This document shows positions 1,350 to 39,962 of a stretch of 64,000 nt of DNA, piece after piece (position 1 is the first letter of the stretch; every line of letters starts with the position of its first letter). The notes under the pieces are model-generated. The model was not told where the DNA came from. It saw only the letters and a program-made list of their open reading frames with translations, and did not search any database. Where the stretch lies: the IMG/VR virus record IMGVR_UViG_3300032893_000011, positions 1 to 64,000 of that record, one strand, 5' to 3'. Origin of the DNA: a virus. The position numbers and the translations under genes were made by a program.

Positions 1350-4124
1350 GTGAACGACGAACGCGCGCGCGTCTACACCGACGTGCGCGACTTCCCCATC
1401 CACGTGTCCTACATGGACGAGCGGACCCGCATCTGGGGCGCCCCCTACCGCATCTGGGACGGCACCGCCGTGATCGTCGGCCTGTCGGCGACCGGGTGGG
1501 CGATGTGGCACTGGCTGGACTCCGGGCACCCCGTCATCATCGGCATCCTCGGCCTGACCCTCACCGCCGCGGCGAGGTGGCTGGCGAAGATGATGCCGAT
1601 CTCACGCCCGAGCCCCGCATGGCGGGCCCGCTGGCTGGCCACCGCCATCACGGCCCGCCCGCGGCGCGCCGACACGGCCGGCGGCGACCCGTGGCTGTCC
1701 CCACCCAAGGCGGTGATCGGCAACCTGGTGTTCACCCACGGCGGGGTGTACGCCGAATACCTTCTGGCCGGGCAGCCCGGCGGGATGATGCCCCACGAGC
1801 AGCGCCGCGCCGTAGCCGCGCGACACCGCCCCCTGGTGCGCCAACTGCCGTCCGGGTTCGTTCTGTGGGGGGTGTGCGCCCCGGTCGGGCGCCGCGAGCT
1901 GATCAACCGGATGCTGCGCGGCCACACCGACCAGCCGCGCTGGGTGTCGGAAGTCCGTGCATGGGAACCGGCCTTCGACCGTAAACAGTTCTGGGAGCCG
2001 GTGTTCGGTTTGCGGGTGCCCGTCGACGCCGGACAGGCCGGGCGCTCCAGCGTCGGCGGGCTGGCGAAGACGTGGAAAACCATCGTAGGGGCCGAGCCCG
2101 ACAACGCCGGAACCCTCGACGGGTACCGCCGCTTCGCCGACGAAATCCTCGCCAAGATCCCCGCCGAGTTCAACCCCGTCCCGGCCACGCCCCGCCAGAT
2201 CCGCTGGTGCTACCACCGCCACTGGACACGCGGCACCGACACCGAGCCGTTCCCGCACGGGCCCGGCGGCCCCGAGCGGTTCGACCCCGCCCACTTCCTC
2301 GACATGCCAGCCGTCTTCGACGAGGGCGACCAGGCCGGTCGCACCGGCCCGTGGTGGCGCCGGTGGCTGCCGTCGCTGGCGCCGGTGCTGCGCATCGACA
2401 CGGCGGGCGGTAATTCGTATCAGGCGCTGCTGGCGGTCGACCAGCTGCCCCGCCAGGGCCTCGCGCATCCCGGCGCCGAATACCTCATGTCCGTCTACGA
2501 CGTGCCGACCGACGCGCAGGTCGACTGGTACGCCCACGTCGACACCCGCTCGCGGGAGCGCGCCCTGGTCGGGGTGGACCGGGCGCAACGCAACCTCGAC
2601 GACCAGGCGTGGCAGACCAGCGGCCGCGGCGATTTGGCGCGCCGCTACGACTCGTCGGTCGACTACCGCCAAGCCCTGGAGGCCAGCAAGCTCGAACGCG
2701 AAACACAAACCACCACCGTCGTGGCGGTCGGCGCCTCCTCCCGCGCCTGGGTGCTGCGCGCGGCCGCCGCGCTGCGCACCCACATGGCCGAGGACATGGA
2801 GATCGTGCTGAGCGGACCGGCCGGCGCGCAGCGGGCCCTGTGGTGCCTGGGGGCCACAGGCGCCGCCGACCAGTCACCGCGCTCACAGTTCCGCCATCCC
2901 ACCACCACCACCGAATGGGCGCGGTTCGCGCCGCTCGCATCGGCCGAACTGGGCAACGACACCGGCATCCTGCTGGCCGCGAACCTGTCCACGGCCCGTC
3001 CTGGCCCGGTGTACGTCGACCTGGAGGGCTCCGCGGCGCGGCGCGACGCCCCCGGCATGCTGTGGTTCGGCCCGCCCGGCGGCGGCAAGTCGCAGGGCTG
3101 CAAACGCGTCGCCGACGCCCTGATCAAACGCGGCTCCCAGGTCACCGTCATCGACCCCGGCTCGAAACGCGAATGGGAGCACGCCCTGGCGCACCACGGC
3201 GACGCGGTGGCGGTGATCGACCCCACGGCGGGCCGCTGGTCGATCGACCCGCTGCGCCTGTTCCCGCGGGCGGTGGCGGTCGAACACACCCTCGACCACC
3301 TTTTGCCGCTGCTGGGCGTCGAACCCGACTCCGCAGCCGCCGGGCAGCTGAACCTGGCGCTGCGCGACGAATCCATACCGAGCCTCGCCGCGCTCACCAG
3401 AACGTTGCGCCCCGACGGCGAGCACCCCGAGCTGGCCGCCAAGCTGCGATCCTGGGCCGGCGTGGACTACCTGCGCGGCCTGTTCGACGACACCCTGCCC
3501 GTCCCGCCCATCGCGCAGCACGACGCCGTCATCTGGCTCACCCACTCCCTCGAACTGCCCACCATGAGCAACACCGACAACCTGCACCTGTACGGCCGCC
3601 AGTCCCGGCGGGCCCGCGCGGGTCTGGCCGTCTACGGCCTCATCGCGGCCCTGACCCGGCTCACCTACACCAGTGCGGGCCGCGACCGCTGGGGGTGGCT
3701 GATCTGCGAGGAGGCCCGCACCTACCTGGCGTCCCCGGCCGGGCGGGAGGAGGCCACCCGCACAATCACCCAGGGCCGCAAGGAGCACTACGGCCTGATC
3801 GTCATCTCCCAGCACATCGAGGACTTCGACGGCATCCCCACCCAGGACCTGCCGATGCGGATAATCACGCCGTTCAAACCCGCCGAGCGCGACTACGCCC
3901 GCGCGGTGTTCAAGCGGATGGGCATCGACCCCGACCAGTACCCCCAGGTCCTCGACACCCGCACCGCGGAGGGCCACGGCTACGCCTACTTCATCGACCA
4001 CCTGGGCCGCGCCGGGCTGGTGGACCTGCTGGCCCCGGTGCAACCCGAACTGGTCGGCGCGTTCGACACCCGCAACCTCGACCAAACAGTACAATGCCTA
4101 CATGATGGATCCGGAAGACGCTGA
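1350..4124 (+). CDS. VirB4-like conjugative ATPase with N-terminal membrane (TcpE/VirB3-like) segment
   Basis: Walker A GPPGGGKS, VIDP, Walker B LICEEA, QGRKEHYGLIVISQ motif, two N-terminal TM helices. Confidence 0.88.
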   Translation: MNDERARVYTDVRDFPIHVSYMDERTRIWGAPYRIWDGTAVIVGLSATGWAMWHWLDSGHPVIIGILGLTLTAAARWLAKMMPISRPSPAWRARWLATAITARPRRADTAGGDPWLSPPKAVIGNLVFTHGGVYAEYLLAGQPGGMMPHEQRRAVAARHRPLVRQLPSGFVLWGVCAPVGRRELINRMLRGHTDQPRWVSEVRAWEPAFDRKQFWEPVFGLRVPVDAGQAGRSSVGGLAKTWKTIVGAEPDNAGTLDGYRRFADEILAKIPAEFNPVPATPRQIRWCYHRHWTRGTDTEPFPHGPGGPERFDPAHFLDMPAVFDEGDQAGRTGPWWRRWLPSLAPVLRIDTAGGNSYQALLAVDQLPRQGLAHPGAEYLMSVYDVPTDAQVDWYAHVDTRSRERALVGVDRAQRNLDDQAWQTSGRGDLARRYDSSVDYRQALEASKLERETQTTTVVAVGASSRAWVLRAAAALRTHMAEDMEIVLSGPAGAQRALWCLGATGAADQSPRSQFRHPTTTTEWARFAPLASAELGNDTGILLAANLSTARPGPVYVDLEGSAARRDAPGMLWFGPPGGGKSQGCKRVADALIKRGSQVTVIDPGSKREWEHALAHHGDAVAVIDPTAGRWSIDPLRLFPRAVAVEHTLDHLLPLLGVEPDSAAAGQLNLALRDESIPSLAALTRTLRPDGEHPELAAKLRSWAGVDYLRGLFDDTLPVPPIAQHDAVIWLTHSLELPTMSNTDNLHLYGRQSRRARAGLAVYGLIAALTRLTYTSAGRDRWGWLICEEARTYLASPAGREEATRTITQGRKEHYGLIVISQHIEDFDGIPTQDLPMRIITPFKPAERDYARAVFKRMGIDPDQYPQVLDTRTAEGHGYAYFIDHLGRAGLVDLLAPVQPELVGAFDTRNLDQTVQCLHDGSGRR

Positions 4125-4205
4125 AAACGACTACTGCGTTCAAGGCAAGTTCGACGGGGTACTTGCCCACAAAGCGCAGATGGACGGACGCTTGTACGTG
4201 AGCAG

Positions 4206-28856: not shown

Positions 28857-29141
28857 ATGGCACGACGCAGGCATGGCGTCCACGCCCACGCCGGTGGGGC
28901 ACACGCCCACACCGGCGGGGCGGCGGGACGCATGGGGAGGCGAGCAGGTCGCCGCAGCGCACGCAGAGGCGTCGCACGGCGCAGGGGGCGCACACCCAAA
29001 CTCGGCACCGGCGCCCGATTCCGAAACCTCACCAAACAAGGTCTAAGCCCTCAATTGGCTGCGTGGATTGGAAGACGGAAATTCGGAAAAGCTCGCTACC
29101 AGGCTCTTTCTGCCGCCGGTAGGCGGCGGCGGAGGCGTTAG
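28857..29141 (+). CDS. Arg-rich basic protein (94 aa)
   Basis: MARRRHGVHAHAGGAHA...PKLGTGARF...LAAWIGRRKFGK...RRRRRR. Confidence 0.7.
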   Translation: MARRRHGVHAHAGGAHAHTGGAAGRMGRRAGRRSARRGVARRRGRTPKLGTGARFRNLTKQGLSPQLAAWIGRRKFGKARYQALSAAGRRRRRR

Positions 29142-29752
29142 CGTCCTCTGCGTGAGAGTGCAGCGCACTTTCGGGAGCAGAAACCTTTCCCGATTTCGCA
29201 GACGGGTCGATGATAAGTCGCTCCGCACCGCCTGCAGGTCTGATCAGGCGTTCGGCGAGGTGAAGGTGTGCCTTTTGGCGGAAGATTCCGCCACGCTTCG
29301 TGCTCAATCTGGTGACAGCGTTTACATAACGTTTCGAGGTTCGCCGGGTCACTGTTCCGGCGGTTCCCGTCTTGGTGGTGAATCAACAGGAACCTCGTGC
29401 TGCCGCATCGCTCGCAGGAGTCTTTGAGGTGGCGGCGATAGTGAATGGGAGATCGGCCGTCGACGTACATCGGGTTGTCGACGCCCAGCTGGAATGTCCC
29501 CTTCCGCTCGGCGGATTGCAAAGCGCCAAGACAGGAGCGCGAGCAGGCGCGGGCGGTGTCGATCCGTTTGGGCGAGATCGTGAAGACCGAGCCGCAGTGT
29601 TCACAGGTTTTCGTGGTGTTGGTGCGGTTCCATCCGGCTTGGGTGCCTTTGGCGGTGCAGGACAGGGAGCAGAAGCGTCCGGTGCCACTGCCTTTCCGCC
29701 GTTGGAAGGCGGTTCCGCAGTGCTCGCAGGTATAGGTAATCATGGTCGGCAT
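29138..29752 (-). CDS. HNH endonuclease with repeated CxxC zinc motifs
   Basis: CERCG..IHHQDGNRRNSDPANLETLCKRCH; TAGAAT -10 box 6 nt upstream. Confidence 0.88.
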   Translation of the reverse strand: MPTMITYTCEHCGTAFQRRKGSGTGRFCSLSCTAKGTQAGWNRTNTTKTCEHCGSVFTISPKRIDTARACSRSCLGALQSAERKGTFQLGVDNPMYVDGRSPIHYRRHLKDSCERCGSTRFLLIHHQDGNRRNSDPANLETLCKRCHQIEHEAWRNLPPKGTPSPRRTPDQTCRRCGATYHRPVCEIGKGFCSRKCAALSRRGR

Positions 29753-29796
29753 AGGCCAATTCTAGCGGCGAGGGCAAGCATGGAGGGGCGCTCGCG

Positions 29797-33056: not shown

Positions 33057-35807
33057 GTGACGGTCCCCGCCCTGCGTGTCGTGCGCCGTCCCAAACGCGC
33101 CCACCGCCACCTGTCCCTGGTGGCCGCCAGCCAACCCATCGAAACCCCGCAACGCATATTCAGGACCACCGTCTCCGGGGTCGTCGCCGACGACGACTGG
33201 CAAACCGAGGCCTGGGACATGTACGACGCCGTCGGCGAGCTCCGCTACTACGTCGGCTGGCGCTCCTCATCGTGCTCACGGGTGCGCCTCATCGCCTCCG
33301 AGATCGACCCCGACACCGGCCGCCCCACCGGCACCTGCGACAACCTCGCCGCCGCCCAAGTCGTCAACGGCATCGCCGGTGGGCACCTCGGCCAAACCCA
33401 GCTCATCAAACGCGTCGTCGAATGCCTCACCGTGCCCGGAGAAGTGTGGGTGGGCATCATCCAACCCGGCGACGAGCCCGCGCAACGCTGGCTCGCCCTG
33501 TCGAAGGACGAGATCTTCAGAAACGGCGCCGGGGCGGAGATCGAGCTGCCCGACGGGTCGCGCCACACCCTGTCCATGCCCCGCGACTCGCTGATCCGCG
33601 TCTGGATCCCCCGAGCCCGGCGGGCGTCGCAGCCCGACTCGCCGGTCCGGGCCTGCCTCGGGTCGCTGCACGAGATACACCGCACCACGAAAACCATAGC
33701 CAACGCCTCCAAGTCCCGCCTCATCGGCAACGGCATCGTGTTCGTGCCGCAGGAGATGTCCCTGCCGCCGATGAACACCCCCCTGGCCGCCAACCAGCTC
33801 GGGCCGCCCACCCCGACGATGGACGGCACGTCGGCGGTGCAGCAGCTGCAGGAGCTGCTGTGGCAGGTGGCGCAGACGGCCTACGACGACGAAGACTCGA
33901 TGGCTGCCCTGATACCGATGTTCGCCACCGTGCCCGGCGACCAGATCAAAAACGTGCAGCACCTGCAGTTCGAGAACAACATCACCGACGTCGCGATCAA
34001 GACCCGCAACGACGCAATCGCCAGGCTCGCGATGGGATTGGACGTGAGCCCAGAAAGGCTCCTCGGTTTGGGGCGAAGCTCAAACCATTGGTGCAAAGAC
34101 GACCAGACTGAAATTCTGACACAACGCGGCTGGTTACGGCAGGATCAGCTGCGAATCGGCGACATGGCGCTGACGCTACAGCAAAGCGGGTTGAGCGAGT
34201 GGCAGCCAGTGCTGGACATCTACCGTGCTGACGTGATTGATGAGCCGATGCTGTCAATGGAGGCGGCGTCTCATTCATCGTTGTCCACGGCAGGGCATCG
34301 CTGGCTGGTGACTCACGTTAGCAACGGGAAATGGCGATGGACGACCAGCGGTCAGGGTTTCGCCAAGGCGGACCGCATACCCGCCGCTGCAAGATGTGTG
34401 TCGTTACCTTCTGGGCCGAAGTACTCGGATAGTTTCGTTCGGCTCGCAGCTGCTTACATGTCGGACGGCTCGCGGTTGCGCTATGAGTCTGGAACAGAAT
34501 TCGTTCGTATCGTCAAGTTCGATGCCGATGAAATCATTGCTTTGCGAGCGGTGTGCCGTGAAGTGTTCGGGCGTGACGTCTCAGAGCGCCATCACCCGAC
34601 CAGAACACGCGCCGGGCTGGCTTTCGTGCTGCACGCCGATGAGTCACAAGCGCTGTTTGACATCACCAGCGAGCATAAGGCGCTCAAACCCGAGTTCATT
34701 CTCACGTTAACGGAAGCGCAGCTGCACCTGTTCCTTGATGCGTTGATTGAGCTTGGCGACGGTGTCGCTTTATCGCATGGTGCTCGGACCTTCTTCCAGG
34801 TGGAGCCGTCACGACTGGACGCCATCGAGATGGCAGCGATCCTCGCTGGCTATCGCTGCACCCGCGGGCAACGTAATCAGCAGACCGGTTTCGGCACGAC
34901 TCCGCTCCACTGGCTACGAGCTGGAACGGCTCGTAAATGGTTTGCTCCCTATGTGGCCGAAAAGTCCTGGCAACGTTACTCCGGGGTCGTCTGGTGTCCA
35001 ACCACCGAGAACGGGACGTGGTTCGCGCGGCGAGATGGAAAGGTCTGCGTCAGCGGAAATTCGGCCTGGCAGTTAGCTGACGAGGACGTGCAGCTGCACA
35101 TTTGCCCCGTGATGGAGTTGCTGTGCGCGGCGTTCAACGAGCGCATCGTCGGCCCTGTGTTTCAGAGGATGGGCATCGACCCCACCCGCTACATGCTGTG
35201 GTACGACGCCACCGGGCTGACCGCAGACCCCGACAAAACCAACAACGCCACAGCGGCGTTCGACCGGGGGGCGATCACCGCCGACGCGTTGCGCTCCTAC
35301 CTGCAGCTCGGCGACGACACCGGCTACGACCTGTCCACCCTCGAAGGGTGGAAGGTGTGGGCGCGCGACCACGTCAGCAAGGACCCCACCCTGCTGTCGG
35401 TCCCGCAGCTCGTCGCGCTGCTGGGCCCCGACGTGGTGAAGGTGACCACACCGCCCGCCCCGCCACCCGAGCAGCCCGCAGTGCCCGCCGGGCAGCGCCC
35501 GCCCGCGCTGCCGTCCGCGAAACCCAAACCCGCAGCCCCCGCGCAGCAGGAGCCGCAAACCGAGGAGGAGGAGGCGGCCCCGGCCGCACAGGTCCGCGAC
35601 GACGTGCACATGGGCATCGTGGACCTGATGGTGTCACGGGCACTCGGCCTCGCGTCGCGGCGGCGTCGCGGCACCGGCGACCGGTGGGACGAAGCCCTCG
35701 AAGACGAAGTGCTGGGTCTGCTGAACATCGACGGCGAGGACGTGCGCGCGGCGGTTCGCCGCAGCGTGCGCCACAAACTCGCCGCGCGCAACGGGGAAGG
35801 AAGCTGA
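33057..35807 (+). CDS. Portal protein containing an intein
   Basis: WQTEAWDMYDAVGELRYYVGW, SKSRLIGNG, AIARLAMGLDVSPERLLG..SNHW|SAWQ; position before capsid genes. Confidence 0.88.
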   Translation: MTVPALRVVRRPKRAHRHLSLVAASQPIETPQRIFRTTVSGVVADDDWQTEAWDMYDAVGELRYYVGWRSSSCSRVRLIASEIDPDTGRPTGTCDNLAAAQVVNGIAGGHLGQTQLIKRVVECLTVPGEVWVGIIQPGDEPAQRWLALSKDEIFRNGAGAEIELPDGSRHTLSMPRDSLIRVWIPRARRASQPDSPVRACLGSLHEIHRTTKTIANASKSRLIGNGIVFVPQEMSLPPMNTPLAANQLGPPTPTMDGTSAVQQLQELLWQVAQTAYDDEDSMAALIPMFATVPGDQIKNVQHLQFENNITDVAIKTRNDAIARLAMGLDVSPERLLGLGRSSNHWCKDDQTEILTQRGWLRQDQLRIGDMALTLQQSGLSEWQPVLDIYRADVIDEPMLSMEAASHSSLSTAGHRWLVTHVSNGKWRWTTSGQGFAKADRIPAAARCVSLPSGPKYSDSFVRLAAAYMSDGSRLRYESGTEFVRIVKFDADEIIALRAVCREVFGRDVSERHHPTRTRAGLAFVLHADESQALFDITSEHKALKPEFILTLTEAQLHLFLDALIELGDGVALSHGARTFFQVEPSRLDAIEMAAILAGYRCTRGQRNQQTGFGTTPLHWLRAGTARKWFAPYVAEKSWQRYSGVVWCPTTENGTWFARRDGKVCVSGNSAWQLADEDVQLHICPVMELLCAAFNERIVGPVFQRMGIDPTRYMLWYDATGLTADPDKTNNATAAFDRGAITADALRSYLQLGDDTGYDLSTLEGWKVWARDHVSKDPTLLSVPQLVALLGPDVVKVTTPPAPPPEQPAVPAGQRPPALPSAKPKPAAPAQQEPQTEEEEAAPAAQVRDDVHMGIVDLMVSRALGLASRRRRGTGDRWDEALEDEVLGLLNIDGEDVRAAVRRSVRHKLAARNGEGS
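34092..35060 (+). mobile_element. Intein (323 aa) in portal, with in-frame LAGLIDADG-like remnant
   Basis: Starts CKDDQTEILTQRGW, block B TAGHRW, ends VWCPTTENGTWFARRDGKVCVSGN/S; helices LAAAYMSDGS and FLDALIELGDG; lower GC than flanks. Confidence 0.9.
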
Positions 35808-35810
35808 ACC

Positions 35811-38800
35811 ATGTGGCCCGACCACGCCGAGGCGATCGAGGAGACCGTTAACGCCGAGGAGGCGCTGGAGGACGCCTACACACAGGCCCTGCACGCATGG
35901 GCGCCCCACGTGCAGGCCGCTGTCCTACCCGAACTGGACGGGCAGATCGTCACCGGCGACGACGACCCGCTGACCGCCGCAGCCACCGAAATCCCGCCCA
36001 ACCCCGACGCTGTCGGCTCCACCCAAAACCAGTGGGACGCCAGCGCGGCCGAGCACGTGCTGCCGGTGGTGGAGAAACTATGGGACGACGCCGCACTGGC
36101 CGCCGGGATCGGAACCGGGACACTCACCGCCGCCCTAAGCGCAGCCGACCTGCTGGCCGCAGCGAAATCGGCGCGCGACGACTTCACAAGCCGCTACAGG
36201 GACACCGCAGCGCAAGTGCCCGCCGCGGTGCGAGCCGAACTGCAGGCCATCATCAAACGCGCGCCCATAGGCACCACCACCTCGGCGCTGCGCTCGACCA
36301 TCCGCAAAGCCATCACACCCGGATCAGCGCTGCTGCGCGACCTGTCGCGACGCGCGAGCTACCACGCCGCCGGGATCCTCAACCACGCCCTCACGGCCGT
36401 CGCCAAACACACCGCAGGCGCCGACCGGCTCGAATGGCTGTGTGTGCACCCCGACACGGTCGTGTCGGCTGTCGGCGTCACCCACCTGGCGCGTCGCCGC
36501 TACGAAGGCACCCTTGTATCGATTCGCACAGCTTCGGGGTCGGCCGTGGCCCTCACACCGCAGCACCGTGTACTGACCGGCCGCGGGTGGGTGGCCGCCC
36601 AGCTCCTTCACGAGGGTGACGAGCTGTTCAAGGTCGGGGCCGTTAACGCCCCGGTCGCACCACACGTACAGGACGGGATAACCGTTATCGGTGATGTGGT
36701 CGACGCGGCGATGGACGGTCGCCCGCCCCAGGTGCGGTCCGTGGCGCGAGGTGTGGATTTCGACGGCCACACCGCTGGCGAGTATGTCGACGTTGTAGCG
36801 GCCGACCGCGACCTGCCGATCAACATCGAACCCGCTGGCGGCGAGATGCTCGGCGACCTGCTGCTCGCTGACGCCGACAGTCTGGCTCATGCGGCGATGC
36901 TTGGTGCGCGCCATCGCAACCACACCCTCGGCCGGTTTGGCGCGGCCCCGGTTCTTGTCGGCAACCATGCCGTAGAAGGCGGCCTTGACATCGGCGGGAA
37001 TCTTCGACACCCGGACCTTGCCAGCGGCGGACTTATCCCGCAACTCGACACCGGCCGCCGCGACAACGGCGGCGATCAACTGACCGGAACAACCGTATCG
37101 CTGGCCGAGCGCGAGCCGGGATCCCCCGGCGAGATACGCGGCGACGATCTCGTCAGCGTTGGCGCGGATGTCGCCGCGCCGCCGGGCCTCGACACCGAGT
37201 TTCTGCGCGGCCCGCGCCTGCGCAACGGCCTCGGGTCGGGTGAAACGCATCCGGGTGCCCTCGGCGCGGGTCCTCAAAACTCCCGCGTCGCGCAGCCTGC
37301 GGCGAACCGTCCCGGGGCTGCCGCCCAGGTCCACGGAGATTTCGACGGGACTCCATCCGGCGGTATACCTGGCGACGACCTCATCGACGTCGAGCCGGAC
37401 CCGCTTGGTGCGTGTGTTCGCGACCGGGTGGTCAGAGTGGGGCGAATTTTCCATAGCGGGTACGTGTACGACCTTTCGACGCGTGGCCATTGGTACACGG
37501 CGAATGGACTTATTGCACATAATTCTATACTCGACGAACGCACCCGCGACACCCATTGGGAGGCAGACGGGCAGGTCACATCGATCGGCGGGATGTTCGT
37601 CGTCGGCGGCTCTGAAATGGAATTTCCAGGGGACCATAGGGCCCCAATACGCGAATGGATCAACTGCGTGACCGGCGAGGCGCTAGTCTCCTGGCCTGGG
37701 CAGCAGGTATCTCACGCTACGAAGCGGCGCCACCGCGGCGCGTTCGTCCATCTGCTCACGGCTGACGGTCACGACCTCACCATCACCGCGAATCATCCCG
37801 TACTGACCGACGCCGGATACGTCACCGCTCACCTGTTGCGCCCAGGCGATCACGTCATCGCATCCGACCCCCTCAATGCCCCACAGGTAGATCACATGCC
37901 AGCCCGTGCTGATGAGGTCTATCGTGCGTTTCGCGATGCGGGGGTAGAGCAGCGGGTTGTAGCGAGCGGCGTGGACTTCCACCACGACGCGCTCGAAGGC
38001 GACGAAGTCAGCGTTGTACGGGCCGATGGTGACTTGTCCGAGGAGTTCAACCCCGGCCTTCTCGGCGGCGGCGACGATGCAGCGCTCGTTGGGCTGGGCA
38101 GCGGAAAGGGTGACGCCGCGCGTGCGGGCTCTGCTGTAAACGGCCGTCTCGACCTGGCCGTAGTAGCCCCTGGACGGCCTGGCGGCCGTCGACCGGCGAG
38201 CCTCGTTGGCGGCCCGGGCGATAGCGCGCCTACCCTCACGGTCGAGTTTGGCGAACCTGATCCGGTTGGCTTCGCTGCCAGAACGCACAGGAAGTCCCTG
38301 GTCGCGCAGGAGACGGACGATGGTGTCTCTGCTTACTCCGATGGTGCGCGCCATCTGCAGCACGCTTATGCCCTCGGCATGAAGCCGAGCAAGCTCACCG
38401 CTGTCGACGTTTACTTTGGCGACCATGATGTCTTCAACTTCTCGACCACCCAACAATTCTACTTCGGCAATGGCATTGCCGTGCACAACTGCCGATGCAG
38501 GCTGATCGCCCTGGGTGCAGGTGAGGAGCCTAAACTGCGGCGCGTGCCCGCCGAGGAGGCGGCCAAACGCGCCAAGCGCGGCGTGGTGCACGCCGAAGCG
38601 GAATCGGTGACCGCAGCGACGGAAGAGGTGGAGCAGATGGGCACCGTCACCCAGATCGATCCCCAGCAGCAGCCCGGCGAGACGTACCGCACGTTCACGG
38701 CGACGACCGCGTTCCTCGGCGTCCCCACCACCGACCGCCGCATGCTGCACAAGAAGATGGACCTGAAGATCCGGGCAGCCCCGCGACCGCTGATGTGGAT

Positions 38801-39962
38801 GTCCAAGACCGGTGATGGCATGGGGGGGCACCAGCACGCGTCCACGGTGGGCGTCATCGAGTCGGAGCAGGTCAAGGGCAACAAGATCGTCGAGTCGGGG
38901 TACCTGCTGAACACCCCGGACGCCGACGAGGCGGCGATGCAGCTCGCGCACAAGGTCACCCGGCCGTCGGTCGATTTGGGCGGCGCGGACTGGCAGATGA
39001 CCGACGAGGACGGCAACAAGATCGGCGAGGAGGAGTGGCGCAACCTGTCGCCGGGCACCAAGACGTACCGCACGTTCACCGCCGGTGAGTTGATGGGCAC
39101 AACCTTGGTGTCCACGCCCGCGTTCGGGGCGACGTCGCTGACGCTGCACCCGGAGCGCGAGACGCGGGACGTGGCGCTGGTCGCGGCGGCGGTGCAAAGC
39201 GCCCTGTTCTACGAGCCCCGCATATACCCGGCGTCGCACTTCTCCGACCCGCAGCTGCCCGGGCCGGCCCAACCGACGATGCTCGACGACGGCCGCATAG
39301 TGGGGCACATCGCCTGCTGGGGGGCGTGCCACCGCAGCGTGCAGAAACTCTGCCAGGAGGCGCCCCGATCCCCGTCCAATTACAGCCACTTCCACACCTC
39401 CCCGGCGGTGCGCCTCGACGACGGCACCCGGCTGCCGGTGGGACGGTTGACGATCGCCACCGGCCACGCCGACGGCCGCCTGAGCGGTGTGCCCGCGCAG
39501 GCCCACTACGACAACACCGGCTCCTGCTGGGCGCTGGTGCGGGCCGGGGAGGACGAGCACGGCATCTGGGTGTCCGGCATCGCCGCCCCGTGGGCCGACG
39601 CGGACCTGGTGGAGCAGGGCCTGTCCGCGCCGCTGTCGGGCGACTGGCGCGACTTCGGCGCCGGCCTGGACCTGATCGCCGCCCTGTCCGTGAACACCCC
39701 CGGGTTCGTCGCGGCCTCCGGGTTCGAGGACGAGTGGGGCCAGCAGCTGACCCTGGTGGCGTCCCTCGGACCGGACCCGACAGGGTCCCGCGGCCCGGCC
39801 GCGCTGACCCGCGACGACATCAAACGCGCGTTCGCCGAGGTCCTGTTCGAGGAGAATGCGCGAATCGAGCGGGAGTCGGCCCTGACGCGGGCCGCAGCGT
39901 TCACCCACCCGCCCACCCACAACGAGCGGGTCCGCGACATGCTGACCAGGGCCGGGTTCTAG
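35811..39962 (+). CDS. MuF-like minor capsid / capsid maturation protease fusion with two inteins
   Basis: Spliced sequence restores EWL-SILDERTRDTHWEADGQ...FPGD...EWIN-CRC; C-terminal GTTLVSTPAF, GHIACWGACH, LSGDWR. Confidence 0.87.
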   Translation: MWPDHAEAIEETVNAEEALEDAYTQALHAWAPHVQAAVLPELDGQIVTGDDDPLTAAATEIPPNPDAVGSTQNQWDASAAEHVLPVVEKLWDDAALAAGIGTGTLTAALSAADLLAAAKSARDDFTSRYRDTAAQVPAAVRAELQAIIKRAPIGTTTSALRSTIRKAITPGSALLRDLSRRASYHAAGILNHALTAVAKHTAGADRLEWLCVHPDTVVSAVGVTHLARRRYEGTLVSIRTASGSAVALTPQHRVLTGRGWVAAQLLHEGDELFKVGAVNAPVAPHVQDGITVIGDVVDAAMDGRPPQVRSVARGVDFDGHTAGEYVDVVAADRDLPINIEPAGGEMLGDLLLADADSLAHAAMLGARHRNHTLGRFGAAPVLVGNHAVEGGLDIGGNLRHPDLASGGLIPQLDTGRRDNGGDQLTGTTVSLAEREPGSPGEIRGDDLVSVGADVAAPPGLDTEFLRGPRLRNGLGSGETHPGALGAGPQNSRVAQPAANRPGAAAQVHGDFDGTPSGGIPGDDLIDVEPDPLGACVRDRVVRVGRIFHSGYVYDLSTRGHWYTANGLIAHNSILDERTRDTHWEADGQVTSIGGMFVVGGSEMEFPGDHRAPIREWINCVTGEALVSWPGQQVSHATKRRHRGAFVHLLTADGHDLTITANHPVLTDAGYVTAHLLRPGDHVIASDPLNAPQVDHMPARADEVYRAFRDAGVEQRVVASGVDFHHDALEGDEVSVVRADGDLSEEFNPGLLGGGDDAALVGLGSGKGDAARAGSAVNGRLDLAVVAPGRPGGRRPASLVGGPGDSAPTLTVEFGEPDPVGFAARTHRKSLVAQETDDGVSAYSDGARHLQHAYALGMKPSKLTAVDVYFGDHDVFNFSTTQQFYFGNGIAVHNCRCRLIALGAGEEPKLRRVPAEEAAKRAKRGVVHAEAESVTAATEEVEQMGTVTQIDPQQQPGETYRTFTATTAFLGVPTTDRRMLHKKMDLKIRAAPRPLMWMSKTGDGMGGHQHASTVGVIESEQVKGNKIVESGYLLNTPDADEAAMQLAHKVTRPSVDLGGADWQMTDEDGNKIGEEEWRNLSPGTKTYRTFTAGELMGTTLVSTPAFGATSLTLHPERETRDVALVAAAVQSALFYEPRIYPASHFSDPQLPGPAQPTMLDDGRIVGHIACWGACHRSVQKLCQEAPRSPSNYSHFHTSPAVRLDDGTRLPVGRLTIATGHADGRLSGVPAQAHYDNTGSCWALVRAGEDEHGIWVSGIAAPWADADLVEQGLSAPLSGDWRDFGAGLDLIAALSVNTPGFVAASGFEDEWGQQLTLVASLGPDPTGSRGPAALTRDDIKRAFAEVLFEENARIERESALTRAAAFTHPPTHNERVRDMLTRAGF
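36324..37454 (-). CDS. Antisense gene in intein 1: two HTH + Vsr/DUF559-like endonuclease
   Basis: HTH VVARYTAGWSPVEISVDLGGSPGTVRRRL; SEQQVAEHL..RQVAVGRYNVDIL..VAVEIH..GYPVLYVW; start could be ATG 37490. Confidence 0.78.
   Translation of the reverse strand: MENSPHSDHPVANTRTKRVRLDVDEVVARYTAGWSPVEISVDLGGSPGTVRRRLRDAGVLRTRAEGTRMRFTRPEAVAQARAAQKLGVEARRRGDIRANADEIVAAYLAGGSRLALGQRYGCSGQLIAAVVAAAGVELRDKSAAGKVRVSKIPADVKAAFYGMVADKNRGRAKPAEGVVAMARTKHRRMSQTVGVSEQQVAEHLAASGFDVDRQVAVGRYNVDILASGVAVEIHTSRHGPHLGRATVHRRVDHITDNGYPVLYVWCDRGVNGPDLEQLVTLVKELGGHPPAAGQYTVLRCEGHGRPRSCANRYKGAFVAATRQVGDADSRHDRVGVHTQPFEPVGACGVFGDGREGVVEDPGGVVARASRQVAQQR
36441..37523 (+). mobile_element. Intein 1 in MuF domain (361 aa)
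   Basis: C1 CVHPDT, block B LTPQHRVLTGRGW, ends VYDLSTRGHWYTANGLIAHN/S. Confidence 0.9.
37522..37527 (-). promoter_or_regulatory. Putative -10 box (TAGAAT) for antisense nuclease 1
   Basis: Reverse complement of ATTCTA spanning the Asn/Ser splice junction codons. Confidence 0.45.
37683..38426 (-). CDS. Antisense gene nested in intein 2: HTH + Vsr/DUF559-like endonuclease (247 aa)
   Basis: HTH GISVLQMARTIGVSRDTIVRLL; NERCIV..GQVTIGPYNADFV..VVVEVH..GWHVIYLW. Confidence 0.8.
   Translation of the reverse strand: MVAKVNVDSGELARLHAEGISVLQMARTIGVSRDTIVRLLRDQGLPVRSGSEANRIRFAKLDREGRRAIARAANEARRSTAARPSRGYYGQVETAVYSRARTRGVTLSAAQPNERCIVAAAEKAGVELLGQVTIGPYNADFVAFERVVVEVHAARYNPLLYPRIAKRTIDLISTGWHVIYLWGIEGVGCDDVIAWAQQVSGDVSGVGQYGMIRGDGEVVTVSREQMDERAAVAPLRSVRYLLPRPGD
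38456..38461 (-). promoter_or_regulatory. Putative -10 box (TAGAAT) for antisense nuclease 2
   Basis: About 30 nt upstream of ATG 38426, inside intein C-terminal block. Confidence 0.45.

Follow-up and report, generated by a model that had tools for sequence, protein, structure and literature searches.

What, if anything, would mobilize two inteins whose own reading frame contains no recognizable endonuclease? The question is raised by a 64,000-nucleotide stretch of viral DNA (hereafter the window), the first 64 kb of IMG/VR record IMGVR_UViG_3300032893_000011, which is 113,740 bp in length and belongs to an actinophage-like virus. On the plus strand of the window, an open reading frame (ORF) of 1383 aa (35811-39962) encodes a precursor with a MuF-like head-morphogenesis domain and a capsid maturation protease, and its DNA is similar to mycobacteriophage and Gordonia phage genes for a "capsid maturation protease and MuF-like fusion protein." We propose that this MuF gene very probably holds two independently acquired class-1 inteins, each a composite selfish element that carries a Vsr-like homing nuclease gene on the opposite strand, in exact codon register.

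The splicing elements themselves are readily delimited. Intein 1 (36441-37523, plus strand; 361 codons) is inserted between EWL and S-I-L-D-E-R-T-R of the MuF domain. It features Cys1 at 36441, block B (T-P-Q-H) at 36555-36566, the block-F histidine at 37452-37454, and a C-terminal A-H-N that is followed by serine (37523/37524). Intein 2 (37665-38489, plus strand; 275 codons) separates the N from the C-R-C of a second MuF motif, with Cys1 at 37665, block B (T-A-N-H) at 37785-37796, the block-F histidine at 38424-38426, and a C-terminal V-H-N followed by cysteine (38489/38490). Both are of the class-1 type. The 47 extein codons between them (37524-37664, plus strand) run from D-x-R-T-R up to W-I-N; D-x-R-T-R and N-C-R-C are conserved MuF motifs, and both are found in the host gene. 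Pfam Intein_splicing matches the whole precursor at 54.5 bits and intein 1 alone at 41.5 bits (cut-off 35.8), while intein 2 alone scores 21.2 bits (E 2.7e-4), under the same cut-off. The NCBIfam models intein_Nterm (36.7 bits; cut-off 24.5) and intein_Cterm (27.2 bits; cut-off 15.6) are both above threshold.

The intein boundaries are precise because the three exteins are colinear on a single profile, PHROG 859 (807 positions): the N-extein covers positions 1-85 and a second stretch, the middle extein 237-281 (E 2e-16), and the C-extein 323-805. The middle extein also matches the "head morphogenesis" PHROGs 3517 and 2468 (E 2e-12 and 1e-9); Pfam, including Phage_Mu_F, matches nothing on the separate exteins. 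In homologues, the same exteins are contiguous. Mycobacteriophage Sejanus and an IMG/VR locus designated L058 have no insert at the second site, Gordonia phages have none at the first, and neither site is occupied in the intein-free PHROG 859 profile. Block motifs, family models, and exteins together uphold the coordinates, boundaries, and 47-codon gap proposed in a first-pass annotation made from the sequence alone, and the splice-junction DNA quoted there is correct. PHROG 859 is a MuF-protease fusion family, yet PHROGs and several RefSeq records (NC_028742.1, NC_028934.1, and NC_051580.1) give it the name "portal protein," where the GenBank counterparts of those records read "capsid maturation protease and MuF-like fusion protein"; the portal label is probably a propagated mis-annotation.

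A family scan of the plus frame of either intein matched no LAGLIDADG, HNH, or other nuclease family, in agreement with the initial description. The plus-frame middles are rich in glycine, alanine, and aspartate, and the residues K, I, F, Y, W, M, N, C, and Q make up 11-13% of them versus 21% of the C-extein. Given this composition, the lack of a domain match, and a conservation lower than that of the antisense frame, these middles appear to be passenger text.

Opposite the passenger text lie two minus-strand genes, which we name HEN1 and HEN2 as the homing-endonuclease (HEN) genes of inteins 1 and 2. HEN1 (36324-37454, minus strand) encodes two helix-turn-helix (HTH) modules and a Vsr-like nuclease, 376 aa from the ATG at 37454. 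An alternative start at ATG 37490 yields 388 aa, and the minus-strand ORF as a whole spans 36324-37637. The conserved part of HEN1 ends at approximately 36495, so that approximately 36495-37454 lies within intein 1; the tail down to the stop at 36324 is a read-through of intein blocks B and A and of 39 extein codons beyond the intein N-terminus. HEN2 (37683-38426, minus strand; 247 aa plus stop) features a single HTH module and the Vsr-like nuclease. As first noted from the ORFs, both genes are in exact codon register with the host gene, and the second is fully enclosed by its intein. The two proteins share 27% identity (E 4.7e-17) and prove to be genuine diverged paralogues of an HTH plus Vsr/DUF559-like nuclease family, as had been suspected. 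Their Pfam matches, to HTH families and to DUF559/MTES_1575, all fall under the cut-offs (DUF559 is PF04480; its gathering threshold is missed), and PHROGs and NCBIfam offer no useful name for either.

Structure prediction places these proteins more firmly. The models of HEN1 and HEN2 are confident predicted Vsr-like folds, and the structure 3R3P (I-Bth0305I) is the best or second-best structural match for both. The first-pass annotation had held that lack of a nuclease fold would count against its reading; a nuclease fold is predicted for both minus-strand proteins. Foldseek against the PDB returned nothing at E ≤ 1e-3, the top hit being 3r3p (E 5.7e-3, prob 1.00), and VIA-align was clearer. 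At the sequence level, the family profile matched 3HRL among PDB sequences (E 0.002), and this profile search detected no sequence similarity to I-Bth0305I. HEN1 and HEN2 retain the invariant or near-invariant residues of a 79-sequence alignment (E, Y-N-x-D, E, R, and G). In HEN2, E114 and D140 are in register with E170 and D196 of I-Bth0305I, the first Glu and first Asp of its E-D-x-H-D motif; the last Asp of the motif was not placed on the register with 3R3P. The HTH modules of both proteins resemble those of regulators and resolvases.

An open antisense frame is no evidence of a gene at this locus. The in-register antisense frame of the 1383-codon gene contains five stops in total and is open for approximately 760 codons over the protease part, where no gene is expected; because it is so stop-poor across the whole gene (70% GC), openness alone carries no weight. 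We consider the antisense genes to be more than chance because homology, substitution pattern, and fold are the decisive tests. For homology, the middles of the inteins were compared by blastp after each intein had been trimmed by 70 codons at its start and 40 at its end. The middles of inteins 1 and 2 match each other at 51 bits in antisense translation and 16.5 in sense, and the antisense advantage recurs between intein 2 and Salmonella phage TS6 (55.5 versus 18.9 bits), intein 1 and Sejanus (92 versus 36 bits), and intein 2 and Gordonia phage ViaConlectus (148 versus 82 bits).

The substitution patterns point in the same direction. Over its 275 codons, intein 2 aligns gap-free (45% identical) with the same-site intein of the Gordonia phages ViaConlectus and Sedona, and within this set differences fall at plus position 3 in the ends and at plus position 1, the antisense wobble position, in the middle. 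Between Kewpiedoll and Sedona, differences at plus positions 1, 2, and 3 number 0, 0, and 7 in the ends and 18, 3, and 10 in the middle (p 0.009). Local identity diverges sharply between the two strands, at 0.80 antisense versus 0.28 sense for codons 176-200 of ViaConlectus and Sedona, and 0.84 versus 0.36 for codons 201-225 of intein 2 and ViaConlectus. Likewise, intein 1 and L058, its closest DNA relative, differ at 8, 4, and 19 sites in blocks A and B and at 47, 25, and 33 in the nuclease core. The inteins of Salmonella and E. coli phages, at 51% GC, show 73, 17, and 40 differences in the middle, with identity of 0.75 antisense and 0.52 sense; their in-register antisense frame contains two stops, relative to 7-31 in the other wrong frames. 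A sense-guided alignment of intein 1 with Sejanus revealed no clear codon-position bias in the middle (85, 64, and 86), probably because of saturation and gaps, and blastp is the informative test for that pair. Overall, these comparisons indicate that it is the antisense frame, not the sense frame, that is under purifying selection in the intein middles. Stops in the minus frame of homologues, with the plus frame conserved, had been named at the outset as evidence that would refute the reading; that minus frame is open in 50 of 50 IMG/VR loci.

Toward the ends of each element, the two strands are bound together more tightly. The block-F His codon, read as its reverse complement, is the HEN2 ATG (38424-38426), and a nuclease ATG stands opposite the block-F His in TS6, PK1, Snoke, BR313c, Sejanus, Fosterous, and the Gordonia phages as well. 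Across the 28 unique IMG/VR loci with a recognizable block F, this codon reads ATG on the antisense strand in 23 and GTG in five, in frame and without an intervening stop. A Shine-Dalgarno (SD)-like tetramer (GGAG, GAGG, AAGG, or AGGT) lies at most 18 nt upstream in 22 of the 28 and is itself the reverse complement of the block-F Asp/Asn-Leu(-Gln) codons; the nuclease ATG of the Salmonella and E. coli phages has AGG or GAGG 9 nt ahead of it. At the other end, block B (L-x-x-T-P-N-H-P-V) has as its reverse complement a family motif similar to Y-R-V-I-R-G-x-G-E. The shorter Y-R-V-I-R-G-like form was seen by eye, without a count, in nearly all of 150 tails, while an over-strict regular expression matched 31-50 of 152. 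In the HEN1 model, this stretch is predicted with confidence to be a β-strand, and it matches the end of Vsr in the alignment. Substitutions over the same stretch follow the sense frame, which makes block B the main constraint, with the nuclease strand carried along by it. Because the start, the SD-like sequence, the last β-strand, and the tail overlap blocks F and B (T-x-x-H-P), some 50-80 codons at the ends of the element appear to be truly double-coded.

The arrangement is by no means confined to this virus. With tblastn, HEN2 matched 49 phage records and the antisense translation of intein 1 matched 97, from phages of Gordonia, Mycobacterium, Pseudomonas, Salmonella, Escherichia, Klebsiella, Cronobacter, Pantoea, Aggregatibacter/Haemophilus, Vibrio, and Idiomarinaceae. 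Among the matches listed, the annotated rows name a head-morphogenesis/MuF/minor-capsid protein, a maturation protease, a structural protein, or a hypothetical protein, and the match is antisense to that host gene in every record opened. A profile search of 1.84 billion representatives returned 5864 relatives at E ≤ 1e-3 and 454 at E ≤ 1e-30. In IMG/VR, the nuclease homologue lies inside a long opposite-strand ORF, and in exact register with it, in 50 of 50 loci (42 unique; GC 0.37-0.71), a sample that is biased to intein-borne copies in that one of its two search patterns was the antisense of block B. These loci were drawn with a six-sequence alignment; searches with single proteins gave none. 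All seven host ORFs scanned carry Intein_splicing, and a capsid family is present as well in four of these: Phage_Mu_F in two, and Phage_min_cap2 and VG15 in one each. In the head-morphogenesis genes of Jerseyvirus and Kagunavirus, the same intein is found with an antisense nuclease ORF of 250 aa; copies lie at 2501-3253 in TS6 (L003), at 1465-2217 in PK1 (L011), and on the minus strand in the E. coli phage Snoke (L012). Only one of the nine records read has the nuclease annotated, as a "hypothetical protein" in PK1; Snoke marks the intein only, and the TS6 annotation lists no ORF there.

The insertion sites elsewhere are the window's two MuF sites, and occupancy is sporadic. Site 2, within N-C-R-C, is used in the Gordonia phages ViaConlectus, Sedona, and Fosterous, in TS6, PK1, and Snoke, in Pseudomonas phage BR313c, and in most IMG/VR loci. 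Site 1, between W-L/V and S/C-x-x-D-x-x-T-R, is used in Sejanus and in IMG/VR loci L028/29, L032, L058, and L019. Sejanus and L058 are occupied at site 1 only, the Gordonia phages at site 2 only, and L019 and the window at both. L019 (IMGVR_UViG_3300025130_000006, 2438-4171; GC 0.71) encodes an antisense nuclease in each of its two MuF inteins, with 38% identity to HEN1 and 45% to HEN2, and since it carries the same pair, the tandem state is not unique to the window. Each window intein is closer to same-site inteins elsewhere than to its neighbour, which points to two separate acquisitions rather than a local duplication. Fosterous (L010) and Sedona (L008), both Vividuovirus, provide a related observation: their exteins are near-identical while their site-2 inteins differ (316 versus 275 codons), one with a two-HTH and the other with a one-HTH antisense nuclease, which suggests replacement of the intein by horizontal transfer.

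If the nucleases are expressed, a further question is from where. A −10-like TAGAATT is present on the minus strand ahead of each gene. The first (37521-37527) spans the C-terminal splice junction of intein 1, its end lying 31 nt upstream of ATG 37490 and 67 nt upstream of ATG 37454; the second (38455-38461) lies between blocks F and G of intein 2 and ends 29 nt before the HEN2 ATG. The two copies are at non-homologous positions, both at local GC dips (0.60 at 38455-38461). TAGAATT occurs three times in the window (0.24 expected) and four times in the 113.7-kb record, always on the minus strand. A third TAGAAT (29759-29764, minus strand) is 6 nt ahead of the ATG of a free-standing HNH gene (29138-29752, minus strand; 204 aa, Pfam HNH 23.8 bits) that sits among the plus-strand late genes in the terminase-portal region. 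A spacing of 6 nt between −10 element and ATG is typical of leaderless actinobacterial mRNAs. Similarly, Salmonella and E. coli phages feature a perfect extended −10, TGCTATAAT, which is the reverse complement of the block-G Ile-Ile-Ala codons and lies 45 nt before the nuclease ATG; a two-hexamer scan misses it because the enterobacterial elements have no −35. TAGAATT is thus a candidate promoter for HEN1 and HEN2, and it is these −10-like motifs that suggest that nuclease expression may be uncoupled from the late capsid gene, as the first-pass annotation supposed. A terminator-like hairpin after the TS6 nuclease gene was within chance expectation and is set aside.

Beyond the architecture, the antisense selection, the predicted fold, and the wide distribution, we infer a cycle of transcription, translation, cleavage, homing, and splicing. 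On the plus strand, the N- and C-terminal Hint blocks would fold and splice the intein out, with the Gly/Ala/Asp-rich loop of approximately 150-250 residues being tolerated. On the minus strand, the same triplets of the loop DNA would encode a free-standing homing endonuclease comprised of HTH modules and an I-Bth0305I-like, Vsr-type PD-(D/E)xK domain. A −10-type promoter of its own (TAGAAT) would drive transcription of this nuclease in opposition to the late operon, and the enzyme would cut MuF alleles that lack the intein in co-infecting relatives, at or close to the insertion site. Repair by recombination would then copy the intein and the nuclease gene together into the cut allele.

The origin of the composite can be proposed with less assurance. 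The earlier interpretation was of a nuclease gene inserted backwards into a mini-intein. A recent event of this kind is not supported here: start and stop keep the same places relative to blocks F and B in very distant phages, as would suit an old composite element. It is conceivable, and we offer it tentatively, that nuclease and intein form one old, obligately double-coded mobile element of a single lineage, rather than the outcome of free-standing nuclease genes having repeatedly and recently invaded mini-inteins. The block-F start and SD-like sequence and the block-B β-strand would then be hard-wired, and the element would have spread through MuF genes of phages that infect Actinobacteria, Proteobacteria, and low-GC hosts, with two copies able to stack in one gene. 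In the window, the three reverse-oriented nuclease genes (the two in the inteins and the free-standing HNH gene) would share a dedicated TAGAAT-type promoter firing against the late operon.

Several observations weigh against functional homing nucleases at this locus. Between the window and the Gordonia phages, the substitution statistics reach p 0.03-0.04, a modest level that reflects near-saturated sequences. HEN1 has GTA, which is not a start codon, where the Sejanus nuclease starts; its block-F-His ATG at 37454, shared with L058, is 17 nt from the nearest SD-like tetramer; and it bears the long read-through tail. The initiation context of HEN1 thus appears weak, leaving a residual doubt as to its activity, and the high model confidence (pLDDT) of its C-terminal strands may stem in part from conservation of block B on the other strand. 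In HEN2, the doubt concerns catalysis. The position that corresponds to H213 of I-Bth0305I (Vsr-H69) in the register with 3R3P is His in most close relatives, Asn in HEN2 and in P0001, a 72% relative, and absent in TS6; HEN2 activity is uncertain because of this Asn. For expression, the TAGAAT elements lack an evident −35, a two-hexamer sigma-70 scan of 36200-38800 found no promoter, and the fourth TAGAATT (record positions 113147-113153, minus strand) lies just past the end of an EccB-like ORF with no recognizable gene following. Finally, L058 (IMGVR_UViG_3300012090_000104, approximately 1312-1950) is evidence that such nucleases decay. Its intein of 213 codons is 78% identical to intein 1 over blocks A and B, has lost the HTH modules, and carries two in-frame stops in the nuclease, one of them in the Y-V-W motif. 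The same stops indicate that a GC content of 64% does not in itself keep the antisense frame open, and L058 looks like the expected decay stage of a homing cycle.

The weak HEN1 start and tail, the Asn of HEN2, and the decay of an intein-1-type copy in L058 are what an alternative reading would build upon, namely that the antisense genes are real in origin, that one or both window copies are now inactive relics, and that the inteins are vertically inherited and splicing-only. Several inteins with Vsr-like HENs do appear to be vertically inherited (Gosselin, Arsenault & Gogarten 2025, bioRxiv 10.1101/2025.01.02.630785). We nevertheless judge relics to be unlikely here. Both ORFs are unbroken over their homologous length and retain all family-invariant residues, and the differences that separate them from their nearest relatives still lie preferentially at antisense wobble positions. 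The His codon beneath the HEN2 start is CAT, which preserves the ATG, where a preference for CAC would be expected at 70% GC, and the rare TAGAATT lies ahead of both genes.

Alternatively, the nucleases could be expressed and serve the phage itself, either by degrading the DNA of intein-less competitors or by regulating the late operon via their HTH modules or antisense transcription. The likeness of the HTH modules to those of regulators and resolvases, the transcription head-on into the late capsid operon, and three reverse-oriented nuclease genes with a common −10-like motif are all compatible with such a role. However, the tie to inteins at conserved MuF sites in 50 of 50 loci, together with sporadic occupancy, bears the mark of homing; to exclude intein-less competitors, the nuclease would make what is mechanistically the same cut; and operator sites are unsupported. 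A primary role in the service of the phage is therefore quite improbable. Least tenable of all, and already contradicted, is the notion that the minus-strand ORFs are a high-GC artefact and that the true endonuclease or linker is the plus-frame polypeptide: the stop-poor antisense frame of the whole gene lends it some appeal, but homologues at GC 0.37-0.51 keep the same frame open, that frame is conserved more than the sense frame and changes at its own wobble positions, its predicted folds are confidently Vsr-like, and the plus-frame middles have no family match and a low-complexity composition.

Composite selfish elements of this kind can be set beside several known systems. In canonical bifunctional inteins such as PI-SceI, an in-frame LAGLIDADG domain is expressed as part of the host polypeptide. 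The elements described here share with PI-SceI a Hint splicing domain, a mobility nuclease between blocks B and F, and a presumed homing cycle with nuclease decay (cf. L058); they differ in that the HEN is the product of a gene apart, which has a start and probably a promoter to itself. I-Bth0305I, the prototype of the EDxHD homing endonuclease family (Taylor et al. 2011, PMC3239194; PDB 3R3P), likewise combines N-terminal tandem DNA-binding (NUMOD/HTH) modules with a C-terminal Vsr-like catalytic domain, but it is encoded on the sense strand in a group I intron of recA, whereas the HENs are antisense in inteins. In the "fractured genes" of Dassa et al. 2009 (PMC2677866), a free-standing Vsr-like or GIY-YIG gene is found between split-intein halves, and the 3' end of the nuclease gene extends 6-69 bp into the downstream intein coding region. 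That system resembles ours in placing a Vsr-like gene at the endonuclease slot of an intein in phage-type genes. There, the host gene and intein are split, the nuclease is a separate ORF between the halves, and splicing is in trans; in the window, the host frame remains open through the antisense nuclease gene and splicing is predicted to occur in cis.

The antisense layout itself is already public, as the first-pass annotation rightly cautioned. Gosselin, Arsenault & Gogarten (bioRxiv 10.1101/2025.01.02.630785) describe inteins with antisense Vsr-like HENs in actinobacteriophage minor capsid genes, and their elements share with ours a nuclease ORF on the opposite strand inside a contiguous intein, a Vsr-like fold, and antisense selection. 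Their antisense ORFs typically lie outside the splicing domain, whereas in the elements analysed here the start and ribosome-binding site, as well as the C-terminus, overlap blocks F and B. Furthermore, the window has two such inteins 47 codons apart in a single gene, and the range here extends over GC 0.37-0.71 and includes enterobacterial and Pseudomonas phages; the text of the preprint never uses the words "two inteins," "multiple inteins," "tandem," "Salmonella," or "Pseudomonas." Antisense LAGLIDADG ORFs in inteins (Synechocystis DnaX and others) are attributed there to Gorbalenya 1998 and Gogarten 2002. As recounted in that preprint, these too place an endonuclease ORF antisense inside the intein, but the enzyme is of the LAGLIDADG type rather than Vsr-like/PD-(D/E)xK. 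Our literature search turned up no further paper on the antisense layout, nor any on enterobacterial versions. What is new here is thus limited to the tandem double occupancy, the overprinting of blocks F and B, the occurrence outside actinophages, and the TAGAATT common to the HENs and a free-standing HNH gene.

These elements are nonetheless of wider interest. In each intein, approximately 0.7-1.1 kb of DNA is read on both strands in the same triplets, and the overlapping 50-80 codons would be under two protein constraints. The nuclease genes are effectively hidden, as routine annotation omits them in most inspected phage records. The arrangement bears on how inteins gain and lose homing endonucleases and on the separate timing of splicing and mobility expression. 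It may also provide tools, in the form of many natural HTH-Vsr-like nucleases with presumably long, distinct targets in a conserved head gene. With two diverged paralogues and a testable promoter motif, the window represents a clean two-in-one case.

Finally, the neighbouring portal gene (33057-35807, plus strand) contains a third intein-like insert of 323 codons (34092-35060). It begins with a Cys after N-H-W, ends in S-G-N before a Ser, and includes an in-frame LAGLIDADG-like motif. Pfam matches nothing in the portal protein or its insert, and the PHROG 776 portal profile (620 positions) matches on both sides of it; GC there is 0.56-0.62. This insert is apparently an intein of the canonical, PI-SceI-like type.

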